64,000 nt of DNA from Octopus vulgaris. Lineage: Eukaryota. Location of the stretch: assembly GCA_951406725.2 (NCBI GenBank), contig OX597828.1:19282001-19346000 (forward strand), in the 5' to 3' direction. This document shows positions 23,801 through 61,376 of the stretch, piece by piece. The position numbers and the translations under genes are program-made. Each line of letters opens with the position of its first letter. Position 1 is the stretch's first letter. The notes under the pieces are model-generated. The model was not told where the DNA came from. It made no database searches and saw only the letters and a list, made by a program, of their open reading frames with translations.

Positions 23801-26095
23801 ATGAATAGACTAATGGTATTTGGAATCATCTGTGAAAATAAAACAAAGGTTTCTCTTCTCTATGCCACACACACGATTTCCATTAATGGTTTTACGTCAC
23901 ACGTCAACATCGAGGTTGAATATATAAATGAAAGCCAACACAAAACAGAAGCTAAGTTTGTTTTCCCTGTGGAAGAAGACAGTGCCGTATATAAATTCGA
24001 AGCTAAAATTGGTGATGTCCATTTAGTTGCCAAATCTAAAGACAAAGATGTTGCCAAAAAGGAATACAAACAAGCTGTAGATAAAGGTCAGTCTGCCATT
24101 TTGTTGCGAGAGACAAGTACATCTGGCGATATTTTTGAGTATAGTTTAGGTAATATTCCAGCAAATGAAAAGATCCATTTACAAATATGCCTTGTTTCTG
24201 AACTTTCTTGTGAAGTTGATGGGGCAGTGAAATTTCATATGCCATTTGTGCTTAATCCCAGATATGGTCTTAAACCTGCAGATGAAAATTATCAAAATGC
24301 ACCTAAACCAAAAGAGTTTAGTTTCAATGCCTCTGTCAACTGGAATTCACAAATCAAAGACATCAAATCAGAACATCCAGTTAGGGTGGATTATCAGGAT
24401 AACAAGTGTCATGCTACTGTGAGAATGGCAAAGGAATTCAATTTTGAGAAAGACCTTCTTCTGCAAGTGTACTATGAAGATGTAGAAAAACCACAAGTAA
24501 TTTTAGAGAAAGGAGATGAGAATTCTAAAGGAATGTTTTCTAAAGATATTATGATGATAAATGTGTTTCCAGAACTTCCGCAAGTAAAACAATCTGCCGC
24601 TAATGACTATATTTTTGTTATTGATCGCTCAGGAAGCATGACTGGAGAGAAAATTGAAGCAGCAAAAGATACTTTGTTACTTTTCTTAAAAAGTTTACCT
24701 TTGGGTTGCTCATTTAATGCTATCAGCTTCAATAATGATTTTGAATTTCTGTTCAAAGAAGGAAGCCGAGAATATAGTGAAGATTCTCTGAATGAAGCAT
24801 TGAAATTCCAGAAAAATCTATATGCTTCGGGAGGGACAGAAATTCTTAGTGCACTGAAATCACTCTCTGTCAAAAAACCATTTCAAAATTTCCATCGACA
24901 AGTATTCTTAATAACTGATGGTGAAGTCTACAACACAAACGATGTCATTCAATTGGTCAAGTCACAAGTAAACAACACACGATACTTCACAATTGGTATT
25001 GGTTCTGGAGCTTCTACAGAATTGGTCAAAGGTATTGCCCGTGCAGGGAAGGGACAAGCAGAGTTTGTGATGACAAACGACAACCTTAAGGCAAAAGTTA
25101 TGCGTTTATTAAAATTGTCAATGCAACCATTTGTATCTTCGGTTTGTCTCTCTGCTAAACATGGTGAAAACAATAAAGAATTATCCTTTATTTCAGTTCC
25201 AGAAAGGCTGCCATGTATTTTCAGTGAAGAAAAATTAATCCTTTATCTAGTTTTACATGAAGCTGAGACTAGTTGCAAAAATGTGAAATTGAATCTTTGT
25301 GGTAAAATTGGTGAATCAGACTTTTCACTTGATTTTGAAGCAAGTCTGTTGGGACAGAATAATAAGGAAATGACAATACACCGTCTTTGTGTGAAAAGGA
25401 AAATACAGGAATTGGAATTAAATGAAGATTTGGGTAAAGGTGATGAAATAAAATCAGAGATTATCGATTTGGGTACAATGGCTAATTTAGTTTCAAAGTA
25501 CACAAGTTTTGTTGGTTTGGATGAACATGTTCGATTGGATTTTCAAATGGCCTCTATGGCAGCTCCAAAACGTAGAGCCAAGTGTGCTTCTGCTTCTTCG
25601 CCAATAGTAAGAATGTTCCATAAGTCCAAAAAAGTTTTACAACAATCAGAGCCAATGCCAGTACGTCTGAGACAAGATACAGCTGGAATGGATGCTTTCA
25701 TAGACAATTCCTTAAGTATAAATGCTGAGAATTCAAGACAGTCACCTCAGTCAGACTTAACCTCTTCAAAGGGAACAATTAAGGACATTTTAACATGTTT
25801 GGTTGATCTACAAGCTTTCTCTGGTTTCTGGAATCTAGATGATCAATTGGCTCAAGCTCTCAGTATTTCTCTTAAGGATCTGAACGATGAGAATCCATCT
25901 GTTAGTGATAAAGTATGGGCTACAGCTCTTGTTGTTGCTGTACTAAGAGAAAAATTAGCTTCCCAGCATTGTGAATGGGAATTAATGGAAAAGAAAGCAA
26001 TTGTTTGGCTGGAATCTCAGAATATACAACCACTGAATTCAGAGAAGTTACTAGAAAAAGCTACAAACTTCATAAAAAACAAAATGGTTGCCTAG
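23801..26095 (+). CDS. VWA5A: VWA5A-like VIT + vWA domain protein, paralog A (764 aa, single coding exon)
   Basis: VIT motif EAKFVFPVEEDSAVYKFEAKIG; vWA MIDAS FVIDRSGSM (DxSxS), GGTEI, LITDGE; LVSKYTSFV motif; VWA5A-type C-terminus LQAFSGFW...WATAL...EWELMEKKAI-WL. The symbol indicates family, not proven orthology. Confidence 0.9.
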   Translation: MNRLMVFGIICENKTKVSLLYATHTISINGFTSHVNIEVEYINESQHKTEAKFVFPVEEDSAVYKFEAKIGDVHLVAKSKDKDVAKKEYKQAVDKGQSAILLRETSTSGDIFEYSLGNIPANEKIHLQICLVSELSCEVDGAVKFHMPFVLNPRYGLKPADENYQNAPKPKEFSFNASVNWNSQIKDIKSEHPVRVDYQDNKCHATVRMAKEFNFEKDLLLQVYYEDVEKPQVILEKGDENSKGMFSKDIMMINVFPELPQVKQSAANDYIFVIDRSGSMTGEKIEAAKDTLLLFLKSLPLGCSFNAISFNNDFEFLFKEGSREYSEDSLNEALKFQKNLYASGGTEILSALKSLSVKKPFQNFHRQVFLITDGEVYNTNDVIQLVKSQVNNTRYFTIGIGSGASTELVKGIARAGKGQAEFVMTNDNLKAKVMRLLKLSMQPFVSSVCLSAKHGENNKELSFISVPERLPCIFSEEKLILYLVLHEAETSCKNVKLNLCGKIGESDFSLDFEASLLGQNNKEMTIHRLCVKRKIQELELNEDLGKGDEIKSEIIDLGTMANLVSKYTSFVGLDEHVRLDFQMASMAAPKRRAKCASASSPIVRMFHKSKKVLQQSEPMPVRLRQDTAGMDAFIDNSLSINAENSRQSPQSDLTSSKGTIKDILTCLVDLQAFSGFWNLDDQLAQALSISLKDLNDENPSVSDKVWATALVVAVLREKLASQHCEWELMEKKAIVWLESQNIQPLNSEKLLEKATNFIKNKMVA

Positions 26096-28050: not shown

Positions 28051-28076
28051 ATTTTTGTTTATTTTTTTCTATACAG
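28051..28076 (+). promoter_or_regulatory. Putative 3' splice acceptor before gene B (copy at 33425-33450 before C)
   Basis: atttttgtttatttttttctatacAG ends 16 nt before the ATG. Confidence 0.65.
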
Positions 28077-28092
28077 GTATTTTAAATACAAT

Positions 28093-30369
28093 ATGGATTG
28101 TTTAATGGTATTTGGAATCATCTGTGAAAATAAAACAAAGGTTTCTCTTCTCTATGCCACACATACGATTTCCATTAATGGATTTACGTCACACGTCAAC
28201 ATCGAGGCTGAATATATAAATGAAAGCCAACACAAAACAGAAGCTAAGTTTGTTTTCCCTGTGGAAGAAGACAGTGCCGTATATAAATTCGAAGCTAAAA
28301 TTGGTGATGTCCATTTAGTTGCCAAATCTAAAGACAAAGATGTTGCCAAAAAGGAATACAAACAAGCTGTAGATAAAGGTCAGTCTGCCATTTTGTTGCG
28401 AGAGACAAGTACATCTGGCGATATTTTTGAGTATAGTTTAGGTAATATCCCAGCAAATGAAAAGATCCATTTACAAATATGCCTTGTTTCTGAACTTTCT
28501 TGTGAAGTTGATGGGGCAGTGAAATTTCATATGCCATTTGTGCTTAATCCCAGATATGGTCTTAAACCTGCAGATGAAAATTATCAAAATGCACCTAAAC
28601 CAAAAGAGTTTAGTTTCAATGCCTCTGTCAACTGGAATTCACAAATCAAAGACATCAAATCAGAACATCCAGTTAAGGTGGAATATCAGGATAACAAGTG
28701 TCATGCTACTGTGAGAATGGCAAAGGAATTCAATTTTGAGAAAGACCTTCTTCTGCAAGTGTACTATGAAGATGTAGAAAAACCACAAGTAATTTTAGAG
28801 AAAGGAGATGAGAATTCTAAAGGAATGTTTTCTAAAGATATTATGATGATAAATGTGTTTCCAGAACTTCCGCAAGTAAAACAATCTGCCGCTAATGATT
28901 ATATTTTTGTTATTGATCGCTCAGGAAGCATGACTGGAGAGAAAATTGAAGCAGCAAAAGATACTTTGTTACTTTTCTTAAAAAGTTTACCTTTGGGTTG
29001 CTCATTTAATGCTATCAGCTTCAATAATGATTTTGAATTTCTGTTCAAAGAAGGAAGCCGAGAATATAGTGAAGATTCTCTGAATGAAGCATTGAAATTC
29101 CAGAAAAATCTATATGCTTCGGGAGGGACAGAAATTCTTAGTGCACTGAAATCACTCTCTGTCAAAAAACCATTTCAAAATTTCCATCGACAAGTATTCT
29201 TAATAACTGATGGTGAAGTCTACAACACAAACGATGTCATTCAATTGGTCAAGTCACAGGTAAAAAACACACGATACTTCACAATTGGTATTGGTTCTGG
29301 AGCTTCTACAGAATTGGTCAAAGGTATTGCCCGCGCAGGGAAGGGACAAGCAGAGTTTGTGATGACAAATGACAACCTTAAGGCAAAAGTTATGCGTTTA
29401 TTAAAATTGTCAATGCAACCATTTGTATCTTCGGTTTGTCTCTCTGCTAAACATGGTGAAAACAATAAAGAATTATCCTTTATTTCAGTTCCGGAAAGGC
29501 TGCCATGTATTTTCAGTGAAGAAAAATTAATCCTTTATCTAGTTTTGCATGAAGCTGAGACTAGTTGCAAAAATGTGAAATTGAATCTTTGTGGTAAAAT
29601 TGGTGAATCAGACTTTTCACTTGATTTTGAAGCAAGTCTGTTGGGACAGAATAATAAGGAAATGACAATACACCGTCTTTGTGTGAAAAGGAAAATACAG
29701 GAATTGGAATTAAATGAAGATTTGGGTAAAGGTGATGAAATAAAATCAGAGATTATCGATTTGGGTACAGTGGCTAATTTAGTTTCAAAGTACACAAGTT
29801 TTGTTGGTTTGGATGAACATGTTCCAGAATTTATGCCAATGAGTTGCATGCCAATGATGTGTTTAGCATCACCACAAGCATACAATCAAAATTCTGTTGT
29901 TGATGAAATGGAGGATGACTATGATGATGATGATGTTGCTTTTTGTCGTGTTTCTGTTGGTGCTGATTCTGTGGATTCAAGTTGCATACCTCCCCCATTT
30001 ACAGTACGACGTGTGACTGATGAGGAATCCTTTATGTCTTCTGGGTCAACAAATAAAGATATTTTAACATGTTTGGTTGGTCTACAAGCTTTCTCTGGTT
30101 TCTGGAATCTAGACGATCAGTTGGCTCAAGCTCTCAATATTTCTCTTAAGGATCTGAACAAAGAGAATCCATCTATTAGTGATAAAGTATGGGCTACAGC
30201 TCTTGCTGTTGCTGTACTAAGAGAAAAATTAGCTTCCCAGCATTGTGAATGGGAATTAATGGAAAAGAAAGCAATTGAGTGGCTGGAATCTCAGAATATA
30301 CAACCAATGAATTCAGAGAAGTTACTAGAAAAAGCTACAAACTTCATAAAAAACAAAATGGTTGCCTAG
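28093..30369 (+). CDS. VWA5A: VWA5A-like protein, paralog B (758 aa; acidic variable segment)
   Basis: About 7 substitutions versus A in the first 577 aa; same MIDAS motifs; a different ~77-aa segment after VGLDEHV. Confidence 0.9.
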   Translation: MDCLMVFGIICENKTKVSLLYATHTISINGFTSHVNIEAEYINESQHKTEAKFVFPVEEDSAVYKFEAKIGDVHLVAKSKDKDVAKKEYKQAVDKGQSAILLRETSTSGDIFEYSLGNIPANEKIHLQICLVSELSCEVDGAVKFHMPFVLNPRYGLKPADENYQNAPKPKEFSFNASVNWNSQIKDIKSEHPVKVEYQDNKCHATVRMAKEFNFEKDLLLQVYYEDVEKPQVILEKGDENSKGMFSKDIMMINVFPELPQVKQSAANDYIFVIDRSGSMTGEKIEAAKDTLLLFLKSLPLGCSFNAISFNNDFEFLFKEGSREYSEDSLNEALKFQKNLYASGGTEILSALKSLSVKKPFQNFHRQVFLITDGEVYNTNDVIQLVKSQVKNTRYFTIGIGSGASTELVKGIARAGKGQAEFVMTNDNLKAKVMRLLKLSMQPFVSSVCLSAKHGENNKELSFISVPERLPCIFSEEKLILYLVLHEAETSCKNVKLNLCGKIGESDFSLDFEASLLGQNNKEMTIHRLCVKRKIQELELNEDLGKGDEIKSEIIDLGTVANLVSKYTSFVGLDEHVPEFMPMSCMPMMCLASPQAYNQNSVVDEMEDDYDDDDVAFCRVSVGADSVDSSCIPPPFTVRRVTDEESFMSSGSTNKDILTCLVGLQAFSGFWNLDDQLAQALNISLKDLNKENPSISDKVWATALAVAVLREKLASQHCEWELMEKKAIEWLESQNIQPMNSEKLLEKATNFIKNKMVA

Positions 30370-33466: not shown

Positions 33467-35544
33467 ATGGATTGTTTAATGGTATTTGGAATCATCTATG
33501 AAAATAAAACAAAGGTTTCTCTTCTCTATGCCACACATACAATTTCCATTAATGGATTTACATCACACGTCAACATCGAGGCTGAATATATAAATGAAAG
33601 CCAACACAAAACAGAAGCTAAGTTTGTTTTCCCTGTGGAAGAAGACAGTGCCGTATATAAATTCGAAGCTAAAATTGGTGATGTCCATTTAGTTGCCAAA
33701 TCTAAAGACAAAGATGTTGCCAAAAAGGAATACAAACAAGCTGTAGATAAAGGTCAGTCTGCCATTTTGTTGCGAGAGACAAGTACATCTGGCGATATTT
33801 TTCAGTGTAGTTTAGGTAATATTCCAGCAAATGAAAAGATCCATTTACAAATATGCCTTGTTTCTGAACTTTCTTGTGAAGTTGATGGGGCAGTGAAATT
33901 TCATATGCCATTTGTGCTTAATCCCAGATATGGTCTTAAACCTGCAGATGAAAATTATCAAAATGCACCTAAACCAAAAGAGTTTAGTTTCAATGCCTCT
34001 GTCAACTGGAATTCACAAATCAAAGACATCAAATCAGAACATCCAGTTAAGGTGGATTATCAGGATAACAAGTGTCATGCTACTGTGAGAATGGCAAAGG
34101 AATTCAGTTTTGAGAAAGACCTTCTTCTGCAAGTGTACTATGAAGATGTAGAAAAACCACAAGTAATTTTAGAGAAAGGAGATGAGAATTCTAAAGGAAT
34201 GTTTTCTAAAGATATTATGATGATAAATGTGTTTCCAGAACTTCCGCAAGTAAAACAATCTGCCGCTAATGATTATATTTTTGTTATTGATCGCTCAGGA
34301 AGCATGAGTGGAGAGAAAATTGAAGCAGCAAAAGATACTTTGTTACTTTTCTTAAAAGGTTTACCTTCGGGTTGCTCATTTAATGTTATCAGCTTCAATA
34401 ATGATTTTGAATTTCTGTTCAAAGAAGGAAGCCGAGAATATAGTGAAGATTCTCTGAATGAAGCATTGAAATTCCAGAAAAATCTATATGCTTCGGGAGG
34501 GACAGAAATTCTTAGTGCACTGAAATCACTCTCTGACAAAAAAACCATTTCAAAATTTCCATCGACAAGTATTCTTAATAACTGATGGTGAAGTCTACAA
34601 CACAAACGATGTCATTCAATTGGTCAAGTCACAAGTAAACAACACACGATACTTCACAATTGGTATTGGTTCTGGAGCTTCTACAGAATTGGTCAAAGGT
34701 ATTGCATGAAACTGAGACTAGTTGCAAAAATGTGAAATTGAATCTTTGTGGTAAAATTGATGATTCAGACTTTTCACTTGATTTTGAAGCAAGATTGTTG
34801 GGACAGAATAATAAGGAAATGACAATACACCGTCTTTGTGTGAAAAGGAAAATACAGGAATTGGAATTAAATAAAGATTTGGGTAAAGGTGATGAAATAA
34901 AATCAGAGATTATCGATTTGGGTACAATGGCTAATTTAGTTTCAAAGTACACAAGTTTTGTTGGTTTGGATGAACATGTTCCAGTTGCTATTCAAATGGC
35001 TTCTATAGCAATTCCAAAATATACAGCCAAGTGTGCTTGTGCTTCTTCGCCAATAGTAAGAATGTTCCGTAAGTTAAAAAAAGTTTTACAACAATCAGAC
35101 CCAATGCCAGTACGTCCGAGAGAAGATATAGCTAGAATGTATACTTCCATAAATAATTCCTTAAGTATAAATGCTGAGAATTCAAGACAGTCGCCTCACT
35201 CAGACTTAACCTCTTCAAAGTGAACAATTAAGGACATTTTAACAGGTTTGTTTGATCTACAAGCTTTCTCTGGTTTCTGGAATCTAGATGATCAATTGGC
35301 TCAAGCTCTCAATATTTCTCTTAAGGATCTGAACGATGAGAATCCATCTGTTAGTGATAAAGTATGGGCTACAGGTCTTGTTGTTGCTGTACTAAGAGAA
35401 AAATTAGCTTCCCAGCATTGTGAATGGGAATTAATGGAAAAGAAAGCAATTGATTGGCTGGAATCTCAGAATATACAACCACTATATTCAGAGAAGTTAC
35501 TAGAAAAAGCTACAAACTTCATAAAAAACAAAATGGTTGCCTAG
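33467..35544 (+). pseudogene. VWA5A-like pseudogene C
   Basis: ATG at 33467 as in B. Defects: +1 frameshift in an A-run (7 A at 34538-34544 versus 6), a 218-bp deletion at a TTGC microhomology (junction 34702-34705), and GGA>TGA nonsense at 35221-35223. Explains ORF pieces 33416, 34660 and 35248. Confidence 0.88.
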
Positions 35545-46907: not shown

Positions 46908-46942
<35 letters not shown>

Positions 46943-47160
46943 CATATATACGACGGGCCTCTTTCAGTTTCCGTCTACCAAATCCACTCACAAGGCATTG
47001 GTCGGCCCGGGGCTATAGCAGAAGACACTTGCCCAAGATGCCATGCAGTGGGACTGAACCCGGAACCATATAGTTGGTTAGCAAGCTAATTACCACACAG
47101 CCACTCCTGTATCTGTTGAGATTCCCATCAATATGCCAATGGTGGCCCCTCCTTCATGTC
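46530..47160 (+). mobile_element. Decayed mariner transposase fragment interrupted by a SINE
   Basis: Translates as LNEDHQRTISDMVDVVGL*YGSMQAILTSDLNM*HVSAKFFSYVLTTEQKEHCVEV, resembling the mariner second HTH and the WVPxxL linker region. Confidence 0.65.
46706..47109 (-). mobile_element. SINE family 1 inserted in the mariner fragment
   Basis: Reverse complement of the family consensus. Confidence 0.85.
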
Positions 47161-47334
47161 CTGCTGGGTTTCTAGCAACCCCTTCTCACCAGGTTAGCCT
47201 GGTAGGGTTGCTTGTTCAGTTGACAGCAATTCAACCATGAAGTAAATAGGATGTACTGGATTCCATGTTACCATTTAGCATTCATGAGAGACCTCACAAG
47301 TGATCTCACACACACACACCCATATGGACATATA

Positions 47335-47565
47335 TCTGTGTGTGTATGTGTGTGTGCGTGTGTATGTGTGAGTGTGTGTTTGTGTGTGTGCGTGTGTATG
47401 TGTGTGTGTGCGTGTGTGTGTGCATGTGCATGTGTATGTCTGTGTGCATGTGTGTGTGTGCGTGTGTATGTGTGCGCACGTGTGTGTGCGTGTGCATGTG
47501 TGTGTGTATGTGTGTGTGTATGTGTGTGTGTGTGTATGTATGTATGTGTGTGTGTATGTATATGG

Positions 47566-47596
<31 letters not shown>

Positions 47597-47600
47597 CGTG
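47335..47600. repeat. Complex (TG)n/(TGTA/TGCG) microsatellite, unit 2 only
   Basis: Directly visible; it produces the spurious CV/HT-repeat ORFs. Confidence 0.95.
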
Positions 47601-47821
47601 TCTTTATGCTTATGTTTGTCTCCCACCACCTCTTGACAGCTGCTATTCGCTTCTTTATGTCTCTGTGACTTAGAGGTTCAGCAAAAGAGACGACAGAATA
47701 AGCACCAGGCTTGAAAATAAGTAATGGGGTTGATTTATTTGACTGACCCCTTCAGGTCACTGCCCCAGTATCATTGCAGTTCAATAATTGAAACAAGTAA
47801 AAAATAGCAGACAGAAGGTGC

Positions 47822-47861
<40 letters not shown>

Positions 47862-48093
47862 AATCCAAACGGGAAAACAAAAAAACAACAACAGTGGAAC
47901 AATTACAGTATTATTATTAATAGGCGCTCGTGCAGGAGTGGCTGTGTGGTAAGTAGCTTGTTTTCCAACTACATGGTTCCGGGTTCAGTCCCACTGCGTG
48001 GCACCTTGGGCAAGTTTCTTCTACTATAGCCTCAGGCCAACCAAAGCCTTGTGAGTGGATTTGGTAGACGGAAACTGAAAGAAGCCCATCGTA

Positions 48094-48137
<44 letters not shown>

Positions 48138-49290
48138 TGTGTGTGTTTGTGTGTCTGTGTTTGTCCCCCTAGCATTGCTTGACAAGCGATGCTGGTGTGT
48201 TTATGTCCCCGTTACTTAGCGGTTCGGCAAAAGAGCCTGATAGAATAAGTACTGGGCTTACAAAAGAATAAGTCCCGGGGTCGAGTTGCTCAGTTAAAGG
48301 CGGTGCTCTAGCATGGCCGCAGTCAAATGACCGAAACAAGTAAAAGAGTAAAGAGTAATATCAATCATCATCATCATCATCATCGTTTAACGTCTGTTTT
48401 TCATGCTGGCATGTGTTGGACGGTTCGACTGGGGTCTGGGAAACCAGGAGGCTGCACTAGGCCCCAATCTGACCTGGCAGTGTTTCTACAGCTGGATGTC
48501 CTTCCTAACACCAACCACTCCAAGAGTGTAGTGGGTGCCTTTTACATGCCACCAGCACGGAAGCCAGTCAAAGCGGCACTGGCATTGGCCACATTTGGAT
48601 GGTGCTTTTTACGTGCTACCAGCACGGGCTCACAACTACAATTTCCATTTGATTTGATGTTGATCTACTTGACTCAATAGGTCACCTCAAGAAAGGCATG
48701 TCATTCTACGATCCAAGGTACTTTTGAGTGGGCTGGCTATGCAACACTGGTGTAGGTTACAACTGAAGATTCACTTTATTTGCGGGGTCTTCTCAGTCAC
48801 AGCATACCTCCAGAGGTCTCGGTCTTTTGTCATTGCTTCTGTGAGGCTTAATATTTGAAGGTCATGCTTTACCACCTCATCCTATGTCTTCTTGGGTCTC
48901 CCTCTACCCTGGATTCCTACCACTGTTTGGGAGTGGCACTTCTTCACAGCTCTCCTCATCCATCCACAGTATATAACCATACCAACACAAACGTCTCTCA
49001 TTGGTATGGTCATGTACTATGAATGGATGAGGAAAGCTGTACAAAGGACAATCCAATTATCTATTTACATTATAACATAATATACTATGAATATAATATA
49101 ATATAGGTGCAGGAGTGGCTGTGTGGTAAGTAGCTTGCTAACCAGCCACATGGTTCCAGGTTCAGTCCCACTGCATGGCACCTTGGGCAAGTGTCTTCTA
49201 CTATAGCCTCGGGCCGACCAAAGCCTTGTGAGTGGATTTGGTAGACGGAAACTGAAAGAGGCTCGTCGTATATATGTATATATATATATG

Positions 49291-49362
<72 letters not shown>

Positions 49363-50232
49363 TGCGTTTGTGTGTCTGTGTTTGTCCCCCTAGCATTGCT
49401 TGACAACCGATGCTGGTGTGTTTATGTCCCCGTTACTTAGCGGTTTGGCAAAAGAGACCGATAGAATAAGTACTAGGCTTACAAGAGAATAAGTCCCGGG
49501 GTCGAGTTGCTCGATTAAAGGCGGTGCTCCAGCATGGCCGGAGTCAAATGACTGAAACAAGTAAAAGAGTAAAAGAGTAACTAACAATTATTTGAAAAAA
49601 CAAAACAGCCAACAATTTGTTTCGACTTATATACATTTTTTAATATACAAACGATTCAATTCCCTTATTGAATTTGAATTGAGACCCCTTTCGGTCATGA
49701 CTGACCGTGGGATTGCACCTAGAAAGTTACCCTCCGAGGCACAAGTCCGGGCAAGGTTGTTTATGGAAGACCGGCAGTCCCCTCTTCACGCCACCAGTGT
49801 TATCCAAGGGAAAGGCAAAGGGGCTGATACAGCTTGGCACCTGTGACGTCGCAACTCATTTCTACAGCTGAGTGAAGTGGAGCAACGCGAAATAAAGTGT
49901 CTTGCTCAAGAACACAACATGCAGCCCGGTCTGGGACTCGAACTCACAACCTCATGGTCGTAAGATCGACGCTTTAACCACTGAACCATACACCTTCACC
50001 GGAAGAAATACTGCTAATATATTTGTGCAGCATCCTAACGATTCTACCAGCTCGCCGCTTTTGAGGGCCTAACAATAATGAATGCCAGCGAGTAGAATAA
50101 AAAGAGAAAGCGAGCGAAATGATGGAACAAGACGCAGTGATGCGAGACTGAAAATATTTCACTTCCGAATAATACAATTCTTCAAAATATTGAAAACATG
50201 ACACATAACACTGAAGAAGTCTTTCTACACAC

Positions 50233-50322
50233 CAGTTGCCCTGATGAGGCTTATATATAAGGGAATTGAATTGTTTATATATTAAAAAATGTATATAAGT
50301 CGAAACAAATTGTTGGCTATTT
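50233..50322 (+). ncRNA. Candidate hammerhead ribozyme, unit 2 copy
   Basis: Same core as the unit 1 copy: CTGATGA at 50241, GAAAC at 50302. Confidence 0.65.
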
Positions 50323-50595
50323 TGTTTTTTTAAATGATTGTTTCTTATATTATATTCATAGTATATTATGTTATATTATGATATAAATAAATTATTTGAT
50401 TGTTATTTGTAACTCTCTATTTAATTTATTATACGTAATTTGCATTGTACCCATATTTATGTGGTATTCAACCAACATACAAGTGAATTGGATGTTTTAC
50501 ACATACCTTTGAAGGAATTTTTTCCTTTGTTTGTTACCTCATATTTATATATATATATACATTTGCTTCAGTCATTAGACTGTGGCCATACTGGG

Positions 50596-50874
50596 TGTAG
50601 TGTGTGCGCGATTTGAATATAGAGGCACCTACCTTCTCTTCTTAGTGACGGAGACCCTCCAACGGTGACTAGTCCTTCCACACAGCCCCGACCCGAACAC
50701 TAACGATAGCAGCTGCTAGCCCAAACCCTTAGCGACGTCCTCACACATCTTGTCACCTCCACGACCCACGTTGGAAAGGGCTCAATTCCCCGCTCCCTGC
50801 GCACGCCTGACGCTGGCCCCTTCCGGTTGCCCTAGCTTCCGGTCAACGCACCCGGCTGCTGACGTCATCCCACA
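50596..50874 (-). repeat. 3' LTR (279 bp)
   Basis: tgtagtgtgtgcgcg...atcccaca; follows the integrase end on the minus strand. Confidence 0.95.
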
Positions 50875-50887
50875 CGCCACCCTGATC

Positions 50888-53707
50888 TTAAAGATCACAA
50901 TCTCTCCGCTCCATGTTGTAGTCCACCATCCAACCGGGAGAGCGCCTTGCTCGTCGAGATCTTCTGAAGCTGGGCTCCTCGTTCTCCCCCTCTCCAGAAT
51001 CATCGTCCGTCAAAGCAACAATCTTGCGAAGGTCCAAGACGTGTCGTGGTGTTCCATCTACGGATACGTTGCTTCTGGAATTGATCGCCGTCACCGTTCC
51101 TCTGCTCCATTGAGACGTACAGCACGCCTTTGGTGGCTTGACCCAGACTTCCTCCCCTATTTTCACGCGAACGGGTCCCTTCTCTTCCTCTTGACCCTCC
51201 GGTACTTTGCTCGGGTGCCTCCATTCATATTTGAACACAGCTCTCTGCGGCACAGATTCCTCAGCTTGTCCGGATCGGGGAGACAAGTTGTACCAAAAAA
51301 ACTGCTTCAAGTGGCGAAATGTGCCCTCTTTCCGCTATGGCCTTGACTGTCCGATGGTGCCTCTCCACGATCCCGTTACCGCTCAGCCTATACGCTGCTC
51401 TGAACAAGCGTCGCACATTCCACCGATCAAGCATAACCCTCAATGCTTCCGAACGAAACGCTGCCCAGTTGTCCATCAGTAGTTCTTCCACGGGACCTCT
51501 CTCTAAAAATATCCCGTTCAGGATCTGCGCAATCTCGTCAGCAATGCCCGATCTCAACTCCTCCAAATGGCCAGCCGGCCCGGCCCGCAGTCGATCATGG
51601 AGAGGTACATTTGCTGACGGTAGTGTGTCACATCCACAGCTAGCCTTTTCCAGTCCTGCTCCATGGAAAGGCTTCCCTGGTCATGCCCACACGGAGCAGG
51701 GTTGATGGACTGACACCTGTCACAGCTCCCGACCACCTTCCGGACGCTTCTCCTAGTGACGTCAGCATCAATTTTTTTTGCCAGATACAGGGTCCTGTCC
51801 ACACCCAGGTGATGCATATCATGCAGTTTCTTCAGTTCAGAGTCATCCAACCAACACGCCACAGCTATCCCTTTCCGGGCCTCCTCCAGTTCTTCCAACC
51901 ACGCTCTTTTCACCCTGGTCAGTACGTCCGCCCTGTTTTTCTCCGAAGGCTCGAAAACCACGTTCAGCTTCAGTCCGAACTCGGCGATCAATTCACCTAG
52001 AACTCCTAGACGGCGCTTCACTAACATCTCCACAGCACCTTTCGTCCGCACTCTCCTGTCACCGGTGATCACCGATCCTACCCAGCCAAGCACAGTGGCC
52101 GAATCCGTCCGGATTTCAATTGTGCGCAGCCCCCATTTCAAGGCCAAGTTCACCCCTTTCAGCAGCGCGTCTAATTCGGCGACATTGATGTGGTTGAAAT
52201 CATCTGCTTTCCAAAGCCAGGCCGCGTCCTCCACCGCAGTGCCTTCGATTGCCAATACCACCCCTATCGCTATACTGCTAGCATCACACCAGACGGTCCC
52301 GCATTTCGTCTTGGGCACATACCAGTTCCCCCCGACCGGGTCTTCCGCTCTTGTCCTCTCTAGGATTTCCTGCATCATCGCCACCGTCCCTTCTCCCACC
52401 TTGTCGCCCCACCTCTCTCCTTCTGCTCGTCTCTTGGTGTAACTACACGCCGTGCGCAGCCATCCAGCGATCGGGTAGTGACCGACCAACATCCCACACA
52501 CCGAGAACAGCTCTCTCCTGCTGACGCTGGAACTCAGCTCTGGGATTTCATTTCCTCTCCAGAACACCAATTCACCTGATCCAACTCTTCGCAGCTTCAG
52601 CCCCAGCGCGGCTCCCCCTTCAATCGACTCCGGTGGCTTAGCAATCAGTCCGAACTCCTCCAGATGTCTAACTACCTCGTCGGCTGGCACTACAGTTTCG
52701 TCCACCAAAATGTCGTCAATGTAGGAGCTGGTGGCCTTTCTAATCTTGCCGTCTTTCCCTAGGACGGACCTAAGCACTGCCGCCATGATCTTCGGAGCGG
52801 AATTCAGCCCGAAACCCAGCCTGGTTAGACAGTACGTCCGGCCCTTGTACCGCACCAGCTGATATCGCCACAGTTTGTCGCTCACATGGAGCTGCAAGTA
52901 TGCCGATCTCAAGTCGACAATCGTCGCTGCCTCAGTCGACTGTCTCCACTTACGTAATGCCTCGCCAGAAACGTCTGTCGCCTCACCTCCCGTGTGACAC
53001 GATATGTGCTGGTTTAGCTCCCTGAAGTCCAGCACCGGTCTGACTTTTCCCTTCGTAGGCTGCACCACCGCCATCAGGAGTAGCACTCCGCCCGCTACCT
53101 CCTCCTTCCAAGGGACAAGGACCCCTTCCTCGATCCACCTCTCCACCTCGTCTTCAAACTCGACTCTGGCGTGGCCTTTCAGGGTATGCTGGTAACAGCT
53201 CACCCTGTTCTCCAGCGTCGGGGGCCCGTCCTTCCATCGCCACTCTATCGTCCACCGCTGACCATCGAACGCAGCCTGAAAGTCTTTGTCCTCGATGGTG
53301 TAAGCTGTGCAGTCCCTCGCGGGGCTCTGCTCTCTCTGGTGATCCTGACTTGCAGTGCACGACGCCCCCACGCTTCCGAACATGACCTCCTTTCCCACAA
53401 CACTGACGCCACCGAGGCAGTTGATGGCGTCCATCCCCATCACCACGTCAACTCCATCTATCATGCGTTCGGCCACAATTGCCTGCAGCCTTAGCGTCGT
53501 GCCGCGCACCACTATCTCTACCTTGCTGCTGCCTCTGCAACGGATTTCGCTGCCGTCGACCGCCCGGACACTACTCACCCCGTTCCATTCCTTCGTCACC
53601 CTCTAAGTCACCAGGGTGGTCATACAGCCCGTATCCACAAGGGCCTTGAACGTCTCCCCCTCGGCCTCCACGTCAATCAATGGCAGTGTCTCCAATAGCA
53701 CCTCTAC
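50888..53707 (-). pseudogene. pol: Disrupted pol (protease, RT, RNase H, integrase)
   Basis: Protease ALVDTG followed by an in-frame TAG at 53603-53605; RT YIDD; RNase H WCDAS/AEL/TDS/ADVL; integrase HH-CC and D,D,E (LAVDV, LMDN, IVER) split by frameshifts near 51560 and 51300. Confidence 0.92.
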
Positions 53708-54468
53708 TCATTTGAGGGGAAAGTTCGAGAAGCAGCAATTTCCCCGCGGTCGTTTCCCTGGTTGCAATCACGGGCAATGTGCCCTGTCTGCCTGCATCGA
53801 TAGCAAACGGGCCCCGGCTGCATACAGTCCCGCGCCATGTGTGGTCCCTGGCATCTAAAACACCGTCCTGAGAACGGCCGCTGTTGTTGCACGGTAAGCT
53901 TCTGTACCTCTTTCTCGGGACGTCGTCTGTCTTTACGCGCCTCCGTCACCGCCATCGCTATCGCCTTCCGCCCAGAGTGTCTCGTCGACATGCGAGCCTG
54001 AGCTACAAGTTCGCTCAACGGCATCTTTTTAACCCCGGGCAGTCGTTGTAGGTGAATCCCTACATCGTCGGGGAACCCATTCACGAACGCCAATCGGGCT
54101 GCTCTCTCCAGTCCCTCTCCCGCAAACCCGGCCAGAGTTGCCAGCCTTCTAACTTCTGATGCAAAGTCATCCACTTGGCCTCCCGTCCACCTGATTGCAC
54201 CTAGCTTAGCAAAAGCTGTGTACTCGCATTCCGTGTAGGCATCACACAAGCGTCGCTCTATATTCTCCTCGCTGAGCCGTTCCTCTTCATCCATCTCTAG
54301 GTATAGCGTTAACGCACTCCCTTCTAAATACAGCGCCATAAGACTCGCCACGTCGCTTATGCCCTGCAGTCTTGCCACCAGCCTGATTTTGCGAATCCAG
54401 GCCACTACATCGCCTTCGCTATTATAAGGTCTGACGACGTCACTGGCGATCCTAATTTTTGCGGACAT
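53704..54468 (-). CDS. gag: Retrotransposon Gag (254 aa)
   Basis: Two CCHC zinc knuckles: CFRCQGPHMARDC and CYRCRQTGHIARDC. Confidence 0.92.
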   Translation of the reverse strand: MSAKIRIASDVVRPYNSEGDVVAWIRKIRLVARLQGISDVASLMALYLEGSALTLYLEMDEEERLSEENIERRLCDAYTECEYTAFAKLGAIRWTGGQVDDFASEVRRLATLAGFAGEGLERAARLAFVNGFPDDVGIHLQRLPGVKKMPLSELVAQARMSTRHSGRKAIAMAVTEARKDRRRPEKEVQKLTVQQQRPFSGRCFRCQGPHMARDCMQPGPVCYRCRQTGHIARDCNQGNDRGEIAASRTFPSNE

Positions 54469-54512
54469 CGTGTTGAAAACAATGTAAATGTTTAAGAATG
54501 GCCGAAATAGCT

Positions 54513-54805
54513 TGTAGTGTGTGCGCGATTTGAATATAGAGGCACCTACCTTCTCTTCTTAGTGATGGAGACCCTCCAGCGGTGACTAGTCCTTCCACAC
54601 AGACCCGACCCGAACACTAACGATAGCAGCTGCTAGCCCAAACCCTTAGCGACGTCCTCACACGTCTTGTCACCTCCACGACCCACGTTGGAAAGGGCGC
54701 AATTCCCCGCTCCCTGCGCACGCCTGACGCTGACCCCTTCCGGTTGCCCTAGCTTCCGGTCAACGCACCCGGCTGCTGACGTCCAGCTGCTGACGTCATT
54801 CCACA
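54513..54805 (-). repeat. 5' LTR (293 bp)
   Basis: Direct repeat of 50596-50874 with ~7 substitutions and a 14-bp duplication (cagctgctgacgtc). Confidence 0.95.
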
Positions 54806-56848
54806 CTGGGGCACCATCTTGAAGAGATTTTAGCCAAACGAATTGACTCCAATATTTTTTATTTAACCCTGGTTCTCATTCTGTTGGTTATTTTGTCGAA
54901 CTGCTAAGTTACATACACTTAAGCAAACAAACACCAGTTGTGGTGGAGGACAAAAGGAGATACACGGACTCTTAGGGAGGAGCGAGCCTGTTTTCTCTCG
55001 GTAGTTGCTATGGTGAAAGAAGACGAGAGTAAAAGGAATTGCAACAGGCATGTTTATCTCCAGTCTCCAGCTAATCAACTTTTTCGTTTTCCACATGAAA
55101 CGGAAAATAAGGCTGGAGAAGAAATGCCTGTCGCAAAGTGTGTTTCGTAAAAGATAGAAGTCTATAGCAAATATGTTGCGAGTGAAAGAACCTGTTTAAT
55201 TGAGAATGTAAAAAAGGAGAAAGCAAAGTCTTCAGTGTGAGTATGGGGTTTGTGGGGTCAACTGCGTCCTCTGCTTCATTTTTTGTTATTCACTCATTCT
55301 CATTTAATTGTATAGATTTTAATTGTTTGTTTATTCATATGTTTCGTCTCATTCGATACCCTGACCCCAACGTTTGTTTTGTCCCCTCTTTTTCTCAACC
55401 TTATGGTGAATAAAGAAATACTCTCTCTCACACACACACATACACACACTGTGCTTCTTTCAGATTCTGTCTACCAAATCCACTTATTAGGCTTCACTTG
55501 TGCCCGAGGCTATAGTAGAAGACATTTGCTCAAATGTTCCACCCTGTGGGACTGAACCTAGAAGCATATGGTTGGGAAGCAAACTTCTTACCACACAGCT
55601 ACACCTGTGCTCATACACACAAACACACACACATATATTCATATATATATTATACTCAGACACAAAGATGGCTTCCACACAGTTTCTGCGCACGAAATTC
55701 ACATCATCATCATCATCATCGTTTAACGTTTTGACTGAGGGCTGACAAACCAGATGGCTGCACCGGGCTCCAATCTTGATCTGGCAGAGTTTCTACAGCT
55801 GGATGCCATTCCTAACGCCAACCACTCCGAGAGTGTAGTGAGTGCTTTTTACATGCCATCTGCACGGAGGCCAGTCAGGCGGTACTGGCAATGACCTCGC
55901 TCGAATCTTTTTACACGTGCTACCGGCACAGGTGCCAGTAAGGCCGCGCTGGTAACGTTCATGCATGAATGGTGCCCTGTGGCAACAATCACACTCGGAT
56001 GGTGCTCTTGGCACCCTACTAGCACGGGCACAAGTGCTAGTAAGGCAATACTGGTAACGATCACACGCGAATGGTGCTTTTTATGTGCCACTGGTATGGA
56101 AGCCAGTTAGCCGCTCTGTCAACATGCTGCATATTTCATTTTTTATATAGGTGCAGGAGTGGCTGTGAGGTAAGTAGTTTGCTTACCAACCACATGGTTC
56201 CAGGTTCATTCCCACTGCATGGCACCTTGGGCAAGTGCCTTCTACTATAGCCTCGGGCCAACCAAAGCCTTGTGAGTGGATTTGGTAGATGGAAACTAAG
56301 CCCGTCGTATATATATATATATATGTATACTTATGTGAGTGTTTATGTGTTTGTGTTTGTTCTCCCCAACATAGCTTGACAACCGATGGTGGTGTGTTTA
56401 CATCCCCGTAACTTAGCAGTTCAGCAAAAGAGACCAATAGAATAAGTACTAGGCTTACAAAGAATAAGTCCTGGGGTCGATTTGTTCGACTAAAGGCGGT
56501 GCTCCAGCATGGCCACAGTCAAATGACTGAAACAAGTAGAAGTGTCTATATAATTAATACATGACATGAGTCTATGACCGATTGCTGTATTTTTATGCAT
56601 TTCGAAATTTGAGGGCAATATCAGTTTATTTGAATAACTTTTGAGAGCATTCCTTAAAATTACTTTCATTCTTATGCTATGTAGTCACTCAACATGCTAG
56701 AACTAGTGCCAAGCCTCCTTCAATTAACAAAAAGACAGGATTTTAATGGTTAGAATACCTTTGAAATTAGGTTACCTTAATCATGTCTGAGCTAAAATAA
56801 AAATGACTAAAGCTGCTGCTTCTACTACTCCCATTTGTACTACTACTG

Positions 56849-56885
<37 letters not shown>

Positions 56886-58988
56886 CACAGATAATGATTT
56901 CAGATTTTGGCACAAGGCCAGCAGTTTTAGTGGCAGGAGATTATTGGTTACATTAACCTCAATACATGACTGGTACTTGGATTTCTCAACCCTCCACTAC
57001 ATGGAAGGCCAAGCTGACCTCAGCAAAATTTCAATTCAGAAAATAAAGAGCTGAATGAAATACCACTAAATATTTTGTTCAACATTCTAACGAGTCTGCT
57101 CACTCATCACTGACGAGATAATAATTAATACAAATCATAATTTCTAATGTGGGCAAAGGGCCTGAAATTTTGAAATGGGAGTAGAAGGGGCTTAATTGGT
57201 ACCATGGACACCAGTATTTAACTGTTTCTTGATTTTGTTGAATCTGAAAGAATAAAGGCAAAATTGACCTTGGTGGGATTTGAACTCAGGACATAAAGAG
57301 CCAGAAGAAACAACACATAACATTTTACCCCATGCGCCAGTGATTCTACCAATCCATGCCCTGACAAAAAATGATAATAGTTTCAAATTTTGGCACAAGG
57401 CCAGCAGTTTTCAGGGAAAGGGGAAGTACACTACATCGACTCCAGTGATCAATGTAAACACCGATGATCAACTGGTACTTATTTTATTGACCCTAAGAGG
57501 ATGAAAGGCAAAGCCAACCTTGGCAGAATTTAAACTCAGACTGTGAAGACAAGTAAAATACTGGTTAGCATTTCGCCTGGTATGCTAACGATTCTGCCTG
57601 CTCACTGCCTTAATAATAATTATGATAATAATAATAATGCTGAGCTGAGACCCTCTTCGGTCATGACTGACCATGGGATTGCACCTTGAAAGTTACCCTC
57701 TCAGGCACAAGTCCGGGCAAGGTTGTTTATGGAAGACCAGCAATCGCCCATGAATACCAGCCTCCCCTCTCCACACCACCAGTGTTATCCAAGGGAAAGG
57801 CAAAGGCCGTTACAGCTTGGCACCTGTGACGTCACAACTCGTTTCTACAGCTGAGTGAACTAGAGCAACGTGAAATAAAGTGTCTTGCTCAAGAACACAA
57901 CACGCAGCCCGCTCCAGGATTTGAACTCACAACCTCACGATTGTAAGCTCGATGCTCTAACCACTGAGCCTTGCACCTTCACATAATAATAATAATAATC
58001 CTGAAATTTAGTGGGAGGGGACTAGTTGATTACATTGACCCCAGTGTTTAACTGGTACTTAATTTATCGACTCGGAAAGGATGAAAAACAAAGTTGACCA
58101 GAATTTGAAATCAGAACATAGCAGCAGACAAAATACGGCTAAGCATTTCACCCAGCATCCTAACGATTCTGCGAGTTTGCCGCTTTGATGATGATGATAA
58201 TGATGATGATAACAACAACAACAACAACAACAACAGTAAACATAATGAGCCAATTCAATATACACTATGGGGTTTATTGACCTGCTACAAGTAACAAGCA
58301 CCTCTCTCAAGTCATGACCTGCAGTCTTTAAAACATAGGAAGAACACATAGGATGATATAGTCTAAGATAAACTGTGTCATGAGAGATGGCTTGATTGTG
58401 ACTAGAATTTATTTTTATTATAGTTTTCTATGTTTAGGTTTGTCTTAAGTTTCAACAACAATAACATACCAACAAGAAACAGTAACAAATTCTCCCTCAT
58501 ATCACACTCAGCCATCTCTAAATGAGGAGAATCACACTATATAATGTAGAACTAGATAAGCTGTGCATGTACAGAGATGGGATTGTCATGGGCAATACAC
58601 TTTTCCCTATCATTGTGGAGGAACAAGGTCAAGCTGGAGCAAAATATGATTGTCTCTGACAACATTGTCATCATTTGTGTACCATCTCTACCTCATTCAC
58701 CAGCACAAGGGCACAACCAGTGGCAACAGTACTTTTTGTAGTAGTAGGAGTTGTAGCAGCAACAGCAGTGGTAATAGATTCTTCATACTTCCACATACAC
58801 ATACATGTGCACCTCCAAGAACATTATCAGGATAACTGCTGTCAATGGACCTGGCAATTAGAAGTCATATTTACTTAGCATTATCATCTCTCGCCAAAAA
58901 TAAAATAACCTTTTAAATGCAACATGTATATATCATTTCTAAATAAGATGTTTCTCCTTCTATTTTATCTAGCACTTTCATTGCAAAC

Positions 58989-61376
58989 ATGAATAGACTA
59001 ATGGTATTTGGAATCATCTGTGAAAATAAAACAAAGGTTTCTCTTCTCTATGCCACACACACGATTTCCATTAATGGTTTTACGTCACACGTCAATATCG
59101 AGGCTGAATATATAAATGAAAGCCAACACAAGACAGAAGCTAAGTTTGTTTTCCCTGTGGAAGAAGACAGTGCCGTATATAAATTCGAAGCTAAAATTGG
59201 TGATGTCCATTTAGTTGCCAAATCTAAAGACAAAGATGTTGCCAAAAAGGAATACAAACAAGCTGTAGATAAAGGTCAGTCTGCTATTTTGTTGCGAGAG
59301 ACAAGTACATCTGGCGATATTTTTGAGTATAGTTTAGGTAATATTCCAGCAAATGAAAAGATCCGTTTACAAATATGCCTTGTTTCTGAACTTTCTTGTG
59401 AAGTTGATGGGGCAGTGAAATTTCATATGCCATTTGTGCTTAATCCCAGATATGGTCTTAAACCTGCAGATGAAAATTATCAAAATGCACCTCAACCAAA
59501 AGAGTTTAGTTTCAATGCCTCCGTCAACTGGAATTCACAAATCAAAGACATCAAATCAGAACATCCAGTTAAGGTGGAATATCAGGATAACAAGTGTCAT
59601 GCTACTGTGAGAATGGCAAAGGAATTCAATTTTGAGAAAGACCTTCTTCTGCAAGTGTACTATGAAGATGTAGAAAAACCACAAGTAATTTTAGAGAAAG
59701 GAGATGAGAATTCTAAAGGAATGTTTTCTAAAGATATTATGATGATAAATGTGTTTCCAGAACTTCCGCAAGTAAAACAATCTGCCGCTAATGATTATAT
59801 TTTTGTTATTGATCGCTCAGGAAGCATGAGTGGAGAGAAAATTGAAGCAGCAAAAGATACTTTGTTACTTTTCTTAAAAAGTTTACCTTTGGGTTGCTCA
59901 TTTAATGTTATCAGCTTCAATAATGATTTTGAATTTCTGTTCAAAGAAGGAAGCCAAGAATATAGTGAAGATTCTCTGAATGAAGCATTGAAATTCCAGA
60001 AAAATCTAAATGCTTCGGGAGGGACAGAAATTCTTAGTGCACTGAAATCACTCTCTGTCAAAAAACCATTTCAAAATTTCCATCGACAAGTATTCTTAAT
60101 AACTGATGGTGAAGTCTACAACACAAACGATGTCATTCAATTGGTCAAGTCACAAGTAAACAACACACGATACTTCACAATTGGTATTGGTTCTGGAGCT
60201 TCTACAGAATTGGTCAAAGGTATTGCCCGCGCAGGGAAGGGACAAGCAGAGTTTGTGATGACAAATGACAACCTTAAGGCAAAAGTTATGCGTTTATTAA
60301 AATTGTCAATGCAACCATTTGTATCTTCGGTTTGTCTCTCTGCTAAACATGGTGAAAACAATAAAGAATTATCCTTTATTTCAGTTCCAGAAAGGCTGCC
60401 GTGTATTTTCAGTGAAGAAAAATTAATCCTGTATCTAGTTTTGCATGAAGCTGAGACTAGTTGCAAAAATGTGAAATTGAATCTTTGTGGTAAAATTGGT
60501 GAAACAGACTTTTCACTTGATTTTGAAGCAAGTCTGTTGGGACAGAATAATAAGGAAATGACAATACACCGTCTTTGTGTGAAAAGGAAAATACAGGAAT
60601 TGGAATTAAATGAAGATTTGGGTAAAGGTGATGAAATAAAATCAGAGATTATCGATTTGGGTACAATGGCTAATTTAGTTTCAAAGTACACAAGTTTTGT
60701 TGGTTTGGATGAACATGTTCGATTGGATTTTCAAATGGCCTCTCTGGCAGCTCCAACACGTAGTCCCACGAGTGGTTATGTTTCTTCGTCACGAATAAAA
60801 GCGATTGGTTTTGAGGAACAAGTTCCAGAATTTATGAAAAGGCGTTGCATGCCAATGATGTGTTTAGCATCACCACAAGCATACAATCAAAATTCTGTAG
60901 TTGCTGAAAGAGTGGATGACATTGATGATGAATTGGAGGATGACTCTGATGATGGTGATTCTTTTGGTGCTGATTCTGTGGATTCAAGTTGCATGCCTCC
61001 CCCATTTACAGTACGACGTGTGACTGATGAGGAATCCTTTATGTCTTCTGGGTCAACAAATAAAGATATTTTAACATGTTTGGTTGGTCTACAAGCTTTC
61101 TCTGGTTTCTGGAATCTAGACGATCAGTTGGCTCAAGCTCTCAGTATTTCTCTTAAGGATCTGAACAAAGAGAATCCATCTATTAGTGATAAAGTATGGG
61201 CTACAGCTCTTGTTGTTGCTGTACTAAGAGAAAAATTAGCTTCCCAGCATTGTGAATGGGAATTAATGGAAAAGAAAGCAATTGAGTGGCTGGAATCTCA
61301 GAATATACAACCAATGAATTCAGAGAAGTTACTAGAAAAAGCTACAAACTTCATAAAAAACAAAATGGTTGCCTAG
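58989..61376 (+). CDS. VWA5A: VWA5A-like protein, paralog D (795 aa; A-type 5' end, B-type 3' end)
   Basis: Intact ORF with the same domains. The MNRLMV start and upstream flank match A; the C-terminus and downstream flank match B. Confidence 0.9.
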   Translation: MNRLMVFGIICENKTKVSLLYATHTISINGFTSHVNIEAEYINESQHKTEAKFVFPVEEDSAVYKFEAKIGDVHLVAKSKDKDVAKKEYKQAVDKGQSAILLRETSTSGDIFEYSLGNIPANEKIRLQICLVSELSCEVDGAVKFHMPFVLNPRYGLKPADENYQNAPQPKEFSFNASVNWNSQIKDIKSEHPVKVEYQDNKCHATVRMAKEFNFEKDLLLQVYYEDVEKPQVILEKGDENSKGMFSKDIMMINVFPELPQVKQSAANDYIFVIDRSGSMSGEKIEAAKDTLLLFLKSLPLGCSFNVISFNNDFEFLFKEGSQEYSEDSLNEALKFQKNLNASGGTEILSALKSLSVKKPFQNFHRQVFLITDGEVYNTNDVIQLVKSQVNNTRYFTIGIGSGASTELVKGIARAGKGQAEFVMTNDNLKAKVMRLLKLSMQPFVSSVCLSAKHGENNKELSFISVPERLPCIFSEEKLILYLVLHEAETSCKNVKLNLCGKIGETDFSLDFEASLLGQNNKEMTIHRLCVKRKIQELELNEDLGKGDEIKSEIIDLGTMANLVSKYTSFVGLDEHVRLDFQMASLAAPTRSPTSGYVSSSRIKAIGFEEQVPEFMKRRCMPMMCLASPQAYNQNSVVAERVDDIDDELEDDSDDGDSFGADSVDSSCMPPPFTVRRVTDEESFMSSGSTNKDILTCLVGLQAFSGFWNLDDQLAQALSISLKDLNKENPSISDKVWATALVVAVLREKLASQHCEWELMEKKAIEWLESQNIQPMNSEKLLEKATNFIKNKMVA

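Follow-up and report, generated by a model that had tools for sequence, protein, structure and literature searches.

What is the role of a single variable segment in a family of tandem genes that are alike almost everywhere else? This question is raised by a 64,000-nucleotide stretch of the Octopus vulgaris genome (assembly GCA_951406725.2, contig OX597828.1, positions 19,282,001 to 19,346,000 of the forward strand; the window below), which carries copies of a VWA5A-like gene. A first-pass annotation of the window described a tandem family with an invariant scaffold and one swappable segment as a candidate bait or recognition region. Our leading answer, to which we assign a probability of about 0.4, is that the array encodes likely cytosolic proteins in which a selected, disordered loop serves as a bait or recognition surface for pathogens, while recombination shuffles the scaffold. 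We rank it ahead of a neutral tether and of specialisation for the octopus's own partners. What this analysis adds is the signal of selection, the origin of copy D by fusion and the parallel with PARP4.

Genome searches place nine VWA5A-like copies, all on one strand, in a 123-kb cluster at contig positions 19,262,448-19,385,795, and give only two weak matches elsewhere in the genome. The tandem family proposed earlier is thus real, though collecting all paralogues enlarges it beyond the four copies in the window (A, B, C and D) to five more outside it. Six of the nine are intact (g1, A, B, D, g8 and g9). All are intronless in their coding part and, outside the loop, 96-99% identical; among named proteins, the nearest are VWA5A-like ones from O. 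sinensis, O. bimaculoides and Argonauta. The copies of the window and their loops are as follows.

23801..26095, plus strand: copy A, third of nine, an intact single-exon coding sequence of 764 aa (open reading frame, Pfam, model)
25532..25780, plus strand: variable loop of A, aa 578-660, basic (13 K+R, 7 D+E) and predicted disordered (composition, model)
28093..30369, plus strand: copy B, fourth, intact, 758 aa (open reading frame, Pfam)
29824..30054, plus strand: variable loop of B, acidic and Met/Cys-rich (3 K+R, 15 D+E; composition)
33467..35544, plus strand: copy C, fifth, a pseudogene that has gained 1 base near 34537, has lost 217 bases after 34704 and carries an in-frame stop at 35221
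34981..35229, plus strand: A-type loop of pseudogene C (alignment)
58989..61376, plus strand: copy D, sixth, intact, 795 aa, an A-B fusion (open reading frame, Pfam, alignment)
60720..61061, plus strand: composite loop of D, made of 25 A-derived codons, a short junction, a copy of the B scaffold end and a B-type loop

The segment boundaries given by the first-pass annotation were exact, and residue counts bear out its description of the A segment as basic and of the B segment as Met/Cys-rich and acidic. The scaffold it called invariant is near-identical but not invariant: pairwise comparison of A, B and D over aa 1-577 yields 8, 10 and 12 non-synonymous changes. Copy C, which had been treated as a gene, is broken and was therefore rejected as a fourth functional variant; its stop at 35221 lies at the end of its loop. 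The reported divergence of its segment from that of A is correct and amounts to 21 residues and a stop, with 24 non-synonymous and 4 synonymous changes. Another pseudogene, g7 (contig 19346479-19348556), is a twin of C, and its first loop codons match those of A and D, a short conversion tract that extends into the loop. Octopus loops range from 77 to 155 aa and fall into three types (A, B and g1/g9). The longest, the internally duplicated 155-aa loop of g9 (contig 19383288-19385795), is common to the O. sinensis protein P0129. An assembly artefact was rejected: the same loop types and the D junction occur in O. sinensis and in sequencing runs, with the junction found in contigs of three of four runs and D-, g2- and g9-type segments found in O. 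sinensis.

Copy D shows how a new loop can be made. The block that ends in copy A recurs 31-35 kb downstream:

13610..25603, plus strand: block duplicated at 43506-60791 (next to the genes, its non-coding sequence differs by 2.07% over 3863 aligned bases)

D follows this A-type block to about 60791 and is B-type from 60805, joining 25600 to 29804. Because the alignment switches from A-type to B-type at this point, D is a fusion that joins an A-type 5' part in frame to a B-type 3' part, as its composite appearance had suggested. The last six scaffold codons of B recur within the D loop (60805-60822), where they carry 4 non-synonymous and 0 synonymous changes, and they have diverged differently in the O. 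sinensis protein P0004 and in sequencing run X16. In this case, conserved sequence turned fast-evolving once it was relocated into the loop.

The case for selection comes from comparing loop and scaffold. The scaffold evolves under purifying selection, with a ratio of non-synonymous (dN) to synonymous (dS) divergence, omega, of 0.42 (p 3e-6; five intact copies, g8 left out). Five well-aligned loop comparisons among A, B, D and g7 hold 39 non-synonymous changes against 4 synonymous ones (by a binomial test, p is 0.006 with kappa 2 and 0.014 with kappa 1; the flanks have a kappa of 2.2), and the set including g8 gives 52 to 7 (p 0.006). For the A and B loop types, codon model M0 yields an omega of 1.7-2.0 (p 0.02 and 0.05 under two frequency models). 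Model M2a is preferred to M1a at p<1e-5 on full alignments, where it may absorb regional rate differences, at p 0.01 after dropping g2 and an ambiguous acidic block, and at p 0.01-0.03 with separate branch lengths for five sub-regions. Between A and D, the first 25 loop codons contain 10 base differences, all of them non-synonymous and all in codons with a single change; with the 2.07% divergence of the block flanks as neutral yardstick, this excess has a Poisson p of 7e-6 at 2.8%, assuming that the flanks were not later homogenised. In A versus g7, dS is 0.046 in the loop and 0.030 in the scaffold, while dN is 0.117 and 0.017; the corresponding values for B versus D are 0.022 and 0.035 for dS and 0.057 and 0.009 for dN. 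When A-C differences are polarised by g2, with ambiguous codons 8-26 excluded, 14 non-synonymous and 1 synonymous changes fall on the branch of intact A and 3 and 1 on that of broken C, with 3 unassigned. Decay of a pseudogene was therefore rejected as the source of A-C divergence, as most changes map to A.

The loops also change between species. At the protein level, which provides no dS, D and its O. sinensis counterpart P0004 differ at 10 of 115 loop residues, 9 of them among the first 35, and at 6 of 624 scaffold residues when a low-quality stretch of P0004 is left out (13 of 575 with it); g2 and O. sinensis P0001 differ at 6 of 92 loop residues. In run X16, three unique intergenic contigs show 13 differences from the window over 1079 bases, an estimate that leaves out a fourth, repeat-like contig (40/288). 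Taken as neutral, this level would make 9 changes in 35 codons far too many. Taken together, these codon and residue comparisons provide moderate evidence that the first third of A- and B-type loops has been under episodic selection while another loop type is conserved, and we regard positive selection on A and B loops as probable. The prediction that omega would exceed 1 in the segment only is borne out for two of its three types (p 0.006-0.05) and fails for g1/g9, by which uniform rapid evolution of all loops is rejected.

The predicted structure indicates how such a loop is presented. The domains of copy A are:

23873..24190, plus strand: VIT domain, aa 25-130 (Pfam PF08487, E 4.6e-28)
24611..25066, plus strand: vWA domain, aa 271-422 (Pfam PF13768), with the residues of the adhesion site dependent on metal ions (MIDAS) D275, S277, S279, T346 and D373 intact
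25781..26095, plus strand: helical C-terminal domain, MVPID/MINT-like, with predicted docking on vWA (AlphaFold2 model, profile, two-chain fold)

Both VIT (PF08487) and vWA (PF13768) score above the Pfam cut-off in A, B and D, which confirms the architecture read from the sequence earlier. D275, S277, S279 and T346 are invariant in 107 sequences and D373 is present; the DxSxS motif of g9 carries a Gly-to-Arg change, as does that of O. sinensis P0129. An AlphaFold2 model built from the same number of sequences (mean predicted local distance difference test score, pLDDT, 84.5; predicted template modelling score 0.83) falls below a pLDDT of 50 only at aa 1-5 and 578-659, so the predicted disorder covers exactly the variable stretch, as expected of a flexible loop, and helices follow at 663-763. 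The core (model range 14-579) superposes on ITIH1 (6fpz) with a Z score of 24.1 and a root-mean-square deviation of 7.4 over 509 aligned residues. The proposed comparison with ITIH1 and ITIH4 thus gives an ITIH1-like core that ends at 579 and a loop in the position of the ITIH4 linker. Among solved proteins, PARP4 is the closest in sequence (query 37-575 to PARP4 641-1180, E 3.7e-36; ITIH4 3e-10), and the family profile matches PARP4 at E 1.8e-97 from its residue 610. Because in this profile the last core strand aligns with PARP4 1175-1180 and with ITIH4 near 590, the loop occupies the position of the selected linker of PARP4 and of the protease-susceptible region of ITIH4.

The C-terminal domain is collinear with PARP4 1547-1641, a weak match (conditional E 2e-5, independent E 3.8); alone as a query, it matched no solved sequence. 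A search of the ESM Atlas returned unnamed clusters only, and the fold-search matches are all driven by the core and hence silent on this domain. Folded with vWA as two chains, it scores 0.75, against 0.01 for the best of three controls; the runs agree in at least 94% of contacts, with a partner pLDDT of at least 88. Of 78 solved pairs, 51 reach the mark used, and of 108 mismatched pairs, 2 do (71 of 105 and 2 of 126 in eukaryotes). The predicted docking surface consists of vWA helices 290-300, 326-330 and 430-438, away from the MIDAS, in agreement with a published Vwa1/VWA5A model (PMC10539598; this and the other papers are cited from excerpts). The Protein Data Bank entry 9e5c contains, as chain 4s, a VWA5A-like protein with its C-terminal part, built into a trypanosome flagellar doublet structure; this solved relative could reveal where the domain really lies.

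The octopus proteins are members of the intracellular VWA5A family and not ITIH, PARP4 or alpha-2-macroglobulin proteins. Named homologues carry the VWA5A name, and the trees that we built are at cephalopod level only. VWA5A/BCSC-1 and Dictyostelium Vwa1-5 form the intracellular VIT-vWFA clade B2 (PMC10539598), with which the octopus proteins share the VIT, hybrid and MIDAS-bearing vWA domains, a three-helix bundle, a long disordered loop, a helical C-terminal domain predicted to lie on vWA, the lack of a signal peptide and lineage-specific amplification. They differ from VWA5A and Vwa1 in their nine-copy intronless array, the amino-acid excess restricted to the loop, the shuffling of loops and a loop born by fusion. 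The literature search, which covered few subscription journals, found no study of selection on the VWA5A loop or of the octopus cluster; a table row for a VWA5A-like shrimp transcript under virus infection (PMC8804360) is too weak to use.

The nearest counterpart is found in PARP4, a cytosolic protein whose linker at this position is under positive selection. Exon 30 of PARP4 encodes about 360 disordered residues with a dN/dS of 1.75 between human and rhesus, is selected in primates and bats and was proposed to be a host-pathogen interface (PMC4038475). Like PARP4, the octopus proteins are likely cytosolic, have the order ITIH-like core, linker and putatively MVPID-like domain, and show a selection signal confined to the linker (PMC4038475, PMC10450202). 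Unlike PARP4, the octopus proteins have no PARP or BRCT domain and no MVP-contact residues, their loops measure 77-155 aa against about 360, and their diversity lies across paralogues and not across orthologues of one gene. In ITIH4, cleavage within the protease-susceptible region (633-713) is followed by MIDAS-dependent trapping of proteases (PMC7793589). The core fold, the intact MIDAS and a variable exposed linker directly after the core are common to ITIH4 and the octopus proteins, but ITIH4 is secreted into plasma and its C-terminal domain is unrelated. Alpha-2-macroglobulin bait regions and the tripwire or decoy sensors NLRP1 and CARD8 likewise combine a conserved body with an exposed stretch that is disordered and evolves fast. 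The octopus proteins have no domain in common with any of these and no evident effector domain.

We infer an immune role that could work as follows. The ITIH1-like VIT-vWA-hybrid core with its intact MIDAS would be a fixed scaffold. The C-terminal domain is predicted to latch onto vWA helices away from the MIDAS, so that the loop would be anchored at both ends. A foreign protein, most plausibly a protease, might bind or cut the loop of the matching paralogue and thereby loosen the latch. The freed vWA/MIDAS face might then trap the attacker, as in ITIH4, or bring in a partner, for example an SCF ubiquitin ligase, as Dictyostelium Vwa1 suggests. New loops arise through point changes and indels, and also by duplication within the loop (g9) or by the in-frame joining of neighbouring genes (D). 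Given selection on the A and B loops, we put the chance that pathogens drive it slightly above even; that the loop is specifically a protease bait appears unlikely.

Scaffold exchange between the copies, which had been proposed as homogenising conversion, is supported by a recombination test on 52 informative scaffold sites in eight copies (g7 left out as the twin of C): 600 of 1326 site pairs are incompatible, near pairs less so (p 2e-4), and the six intact copies give the same result. The loop types are old: in an 11-row tree, g1 clusters with P0017 of O. bimaculoides (97/94), while D pairs with P0004 (94/90) and g2 with P0001 (95/79), both from O. sinensis. A 19-row scaffold tree leaves the 13 long-loop rows unresolved, and concerted evolution across species therefore lacks tree support; the first 116 residues, with 2-3 differences within and 4-5 between species, hold too few to decide.

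Sequencing runs favour transcription of the paralogues. Runs X2 and X8, which may be RNA because they hold just 98 and 118 million letters where the genome has 2.8 Gb, have depths of 128-210 in gene-body contigs and of 3.6-7.4 in the intergenic contigs listed; the genome-sized run X16 has 56-64 in the gene body and 19-33 in three unique intergenic contigs. X2 contains contigs identical to the loop of A (25621-25836) and of B (29843-29986). The D junction occurs in X2 and X8 with the window's letters and in X16 with letters giving the P0004 residues, and does not occur in X13. From the gene-body depth and the loop and junction contigs in X2 and X8, A, B and D are likely transcribed. Contigs about 83-86% identical to B are present in X2, X8 and X16.

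Several observations weigh against a pathogen-facing loop. The RNA nature of these runs is a guess, as none is recorded as RNA or has a tissue label. Three of the nine copies (g2, C and g7) are broken. No excess is seen in loops of the g1/g9 type (omega 0.49-0.86; 0.49-0.71 under M0), adding g1/g9 changes the counts to 91:23 (p 0.10), and the three loop types pooled give a non-significant M0 omega of 1.1-1.4; of 10 loop pairs compared singly, 8 have an omega greater than 1, and p<0.05 is reached in one of the 10. Our codon models were run with our own scripts on two to four sequences per type and on assumed trees, their input is a recombining region with pseudogenes among the sequences, and their p values are uncorrected for multiple tests. 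The g9 loop is identical to that of O. sinensis P0129 over 155 residues (0/155), somewhat too few changes if the intergenic level given above is neutral, and so it has not been in a continuous arms race. The docking test joins two parts of one chain and may be passed by likeness to the solved relative 9e5c_4s; since the parts belong to one protein and such a relative exists, the pass reflects likeness more than binding. Dictyostelium Vwa1 works with a developmental F-box protein, FbxwD (PMC10539598). Finally, the loop is variable in every VWA5A lineage sampled, as a tether would be, and its variability alone is not special because it extends across the whole family.

The last point leads to the view, to us somewhat unlikely, that the loop is a tether under low constraint that drifts, gathers indels and escapes the conversion homogenising its flanks, with omega above 1 produced by limited sampling together with mosaic conversion and mutations that cluster. 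Conservation in the family alignment of 107 sequences is lowest in the loop, whose length varies from 41 to 294 aa among the homologues parsed (71 of 120), and pooled omega does not exceed 1; scaffold divergence also climbs beside the loop (0.067 and 0.042 against about 0.01), as expected if heterology blocks conversion. Such drift does not readily explain why loop dS stays near scaffold dS where dN is 6-7 times higher (A versus g7, B versus D), or why all 10 A-D changes sit in single-change codons. It predicts even rates, but D differs between species at 10 of 115 residues and g9 at 0 of 155 (p 1.6e-4). Other octopods possess a paralogue with a short, slowly evolving loop of 41 aa (P0009, P0010 and P0011), of which P0009 and P0010 had no counterpart in a stricter first look at the O. 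vulgaris genome, from which absence does not follow. A short-loop pair shows 5 changes in 41 loop residues against 44 in 624 (p 0.22), another point against drift. It is also conceivable, and in our judgment rather unlikely, that the loop is selected for the octopus's own partners, its basic and acidic versions altering localisation, half-life or F-box partners after duplication with no pathogen involved. Bursts on new duplicates and on fusion D beside a static g9, loop charge classes that are stable across species and the action of Vwa1 with FbxwD would all agree with this. D has nevertheless continued to change after the species split, as seen in P0004 and in the junction letters of X16, and scallop, coral, mussel and amphioxus contain pairs with at least 95% scaffold but 28-60% loop identity (some rows being isoforms or alleles), a recurrence that fits repeated conflict better than specialisation happening once.

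Two further proposals borrow more literally from known relatives. The first-pass annotation leaned towards protease traps of the ITIH4 or alpha-2-macroglobulin kind, which would be secreted into the haemolymph, in keeping with the ITIH1-like core, the intact MIDAS and a loop starting where the ITIH4 linker starts. This part of its claim does not hold up well, and we regard it as very improbable. No signal peptide is apparent by inspection and hydropathy (SignalP or another dedicated predictor was not run) at the N-terminus of A or B, in the annotated extension of 37 aa or in two other cephalopod-like homologues, which makes a secreted ITIH4-like trap unlikely. The start position is conserved with intracellular relatives, although an unseen upstream coding exon is possible. 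Pfam finds no ITIH C-terminal domain, the ITIH4 alignment stops at the linker and the octopus C-terminal domain is all helical; neither Pfam nor PDB sequences reveal a macroglobulin or thioester domain, and the family belongs to VWA5A, nearest to PARP4, whose clade B2 is intracellular (PMC10539598). Hardly more credible is a role as vault cargo, in which a MINT-like C-terminal domain would sit on major vault protein (MVP) and display the loop inside the vault, like a PARP4 without its enzyme; Pfam indeed finds no PARP catalytic or BRCT domain. The weak collinearity with PARP4 1547-1641 would favour it, as would an MVP shoulder-domain gene in the same genome, encoded in three exons at C26:12714976-12717956. 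Of the PARP4 MINT-MVP contacts, which include S1614, K1618 and R1689 (PMC12280208), however, the first two fall, in a weak alignment, in a 12-residue insertion absent from the family profile; human VWA5A, for which homology to the MVPID domain is stated, lacks the Arg1689 equivalent (PMC10450202); and the conserved face of the octopus C-terminal domain is predicted to bind its own vWA domain.

The surroundings of the genes contain additional features, among them the following.

23757..23784, plus strand: polypyrimidine tract ending in an AG that lies 16 bases 5' of A's ATG, likely the acceptor of an upstream exon (sequence)

Two unrelated upstream sequences occur among the nine copies, each with a polypyrimidine tract and an AG at equal distance, 16 bases 5' of the ATG (e.g., 23783-23784 in A and 28075-28076 in B). 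Both are found with each of the three loop types, which suggests, from sequence context, different upstream exons or promoters shuffled among loop types. A long terminal repeat (LTR) retrotransposon lies at 50596-54783 on the minus strand, with 271-base terminal repeats 97.8% identical, a gag-like open reading frame with zinc knuckles (53704-54468) and a pol-like one (51554-53464); it is inserted into the duplicated block upstream of D, and the counterpart upstream of A lacks it. Immediately 3' of g9 there is a long array of tandem repeats (contig about 19392600-19400100).

We know of no established molecular function of VWA5A, nor of the partner behind the selected linker of PARP4. Paralogues that are alike save for one loop provide a natural swap experiment for both questions. 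A wider and doubtful extension is that VWA5A-type proteins are an overlooked animal-wide family of cytosolic tripwires or traps, whose loop would be a conflict hotspot equivalent to the ITIH4 bait and PARP4 exon 30 and whose octopus repertoire would have been enlarged by in-frame fusions. If the loop is only a tether, the array is a case of ordinary birth-and-death evolution with conversion. If it is a pathogen bait, cephalopod immunity gains an intracellular, diversified recognition family.

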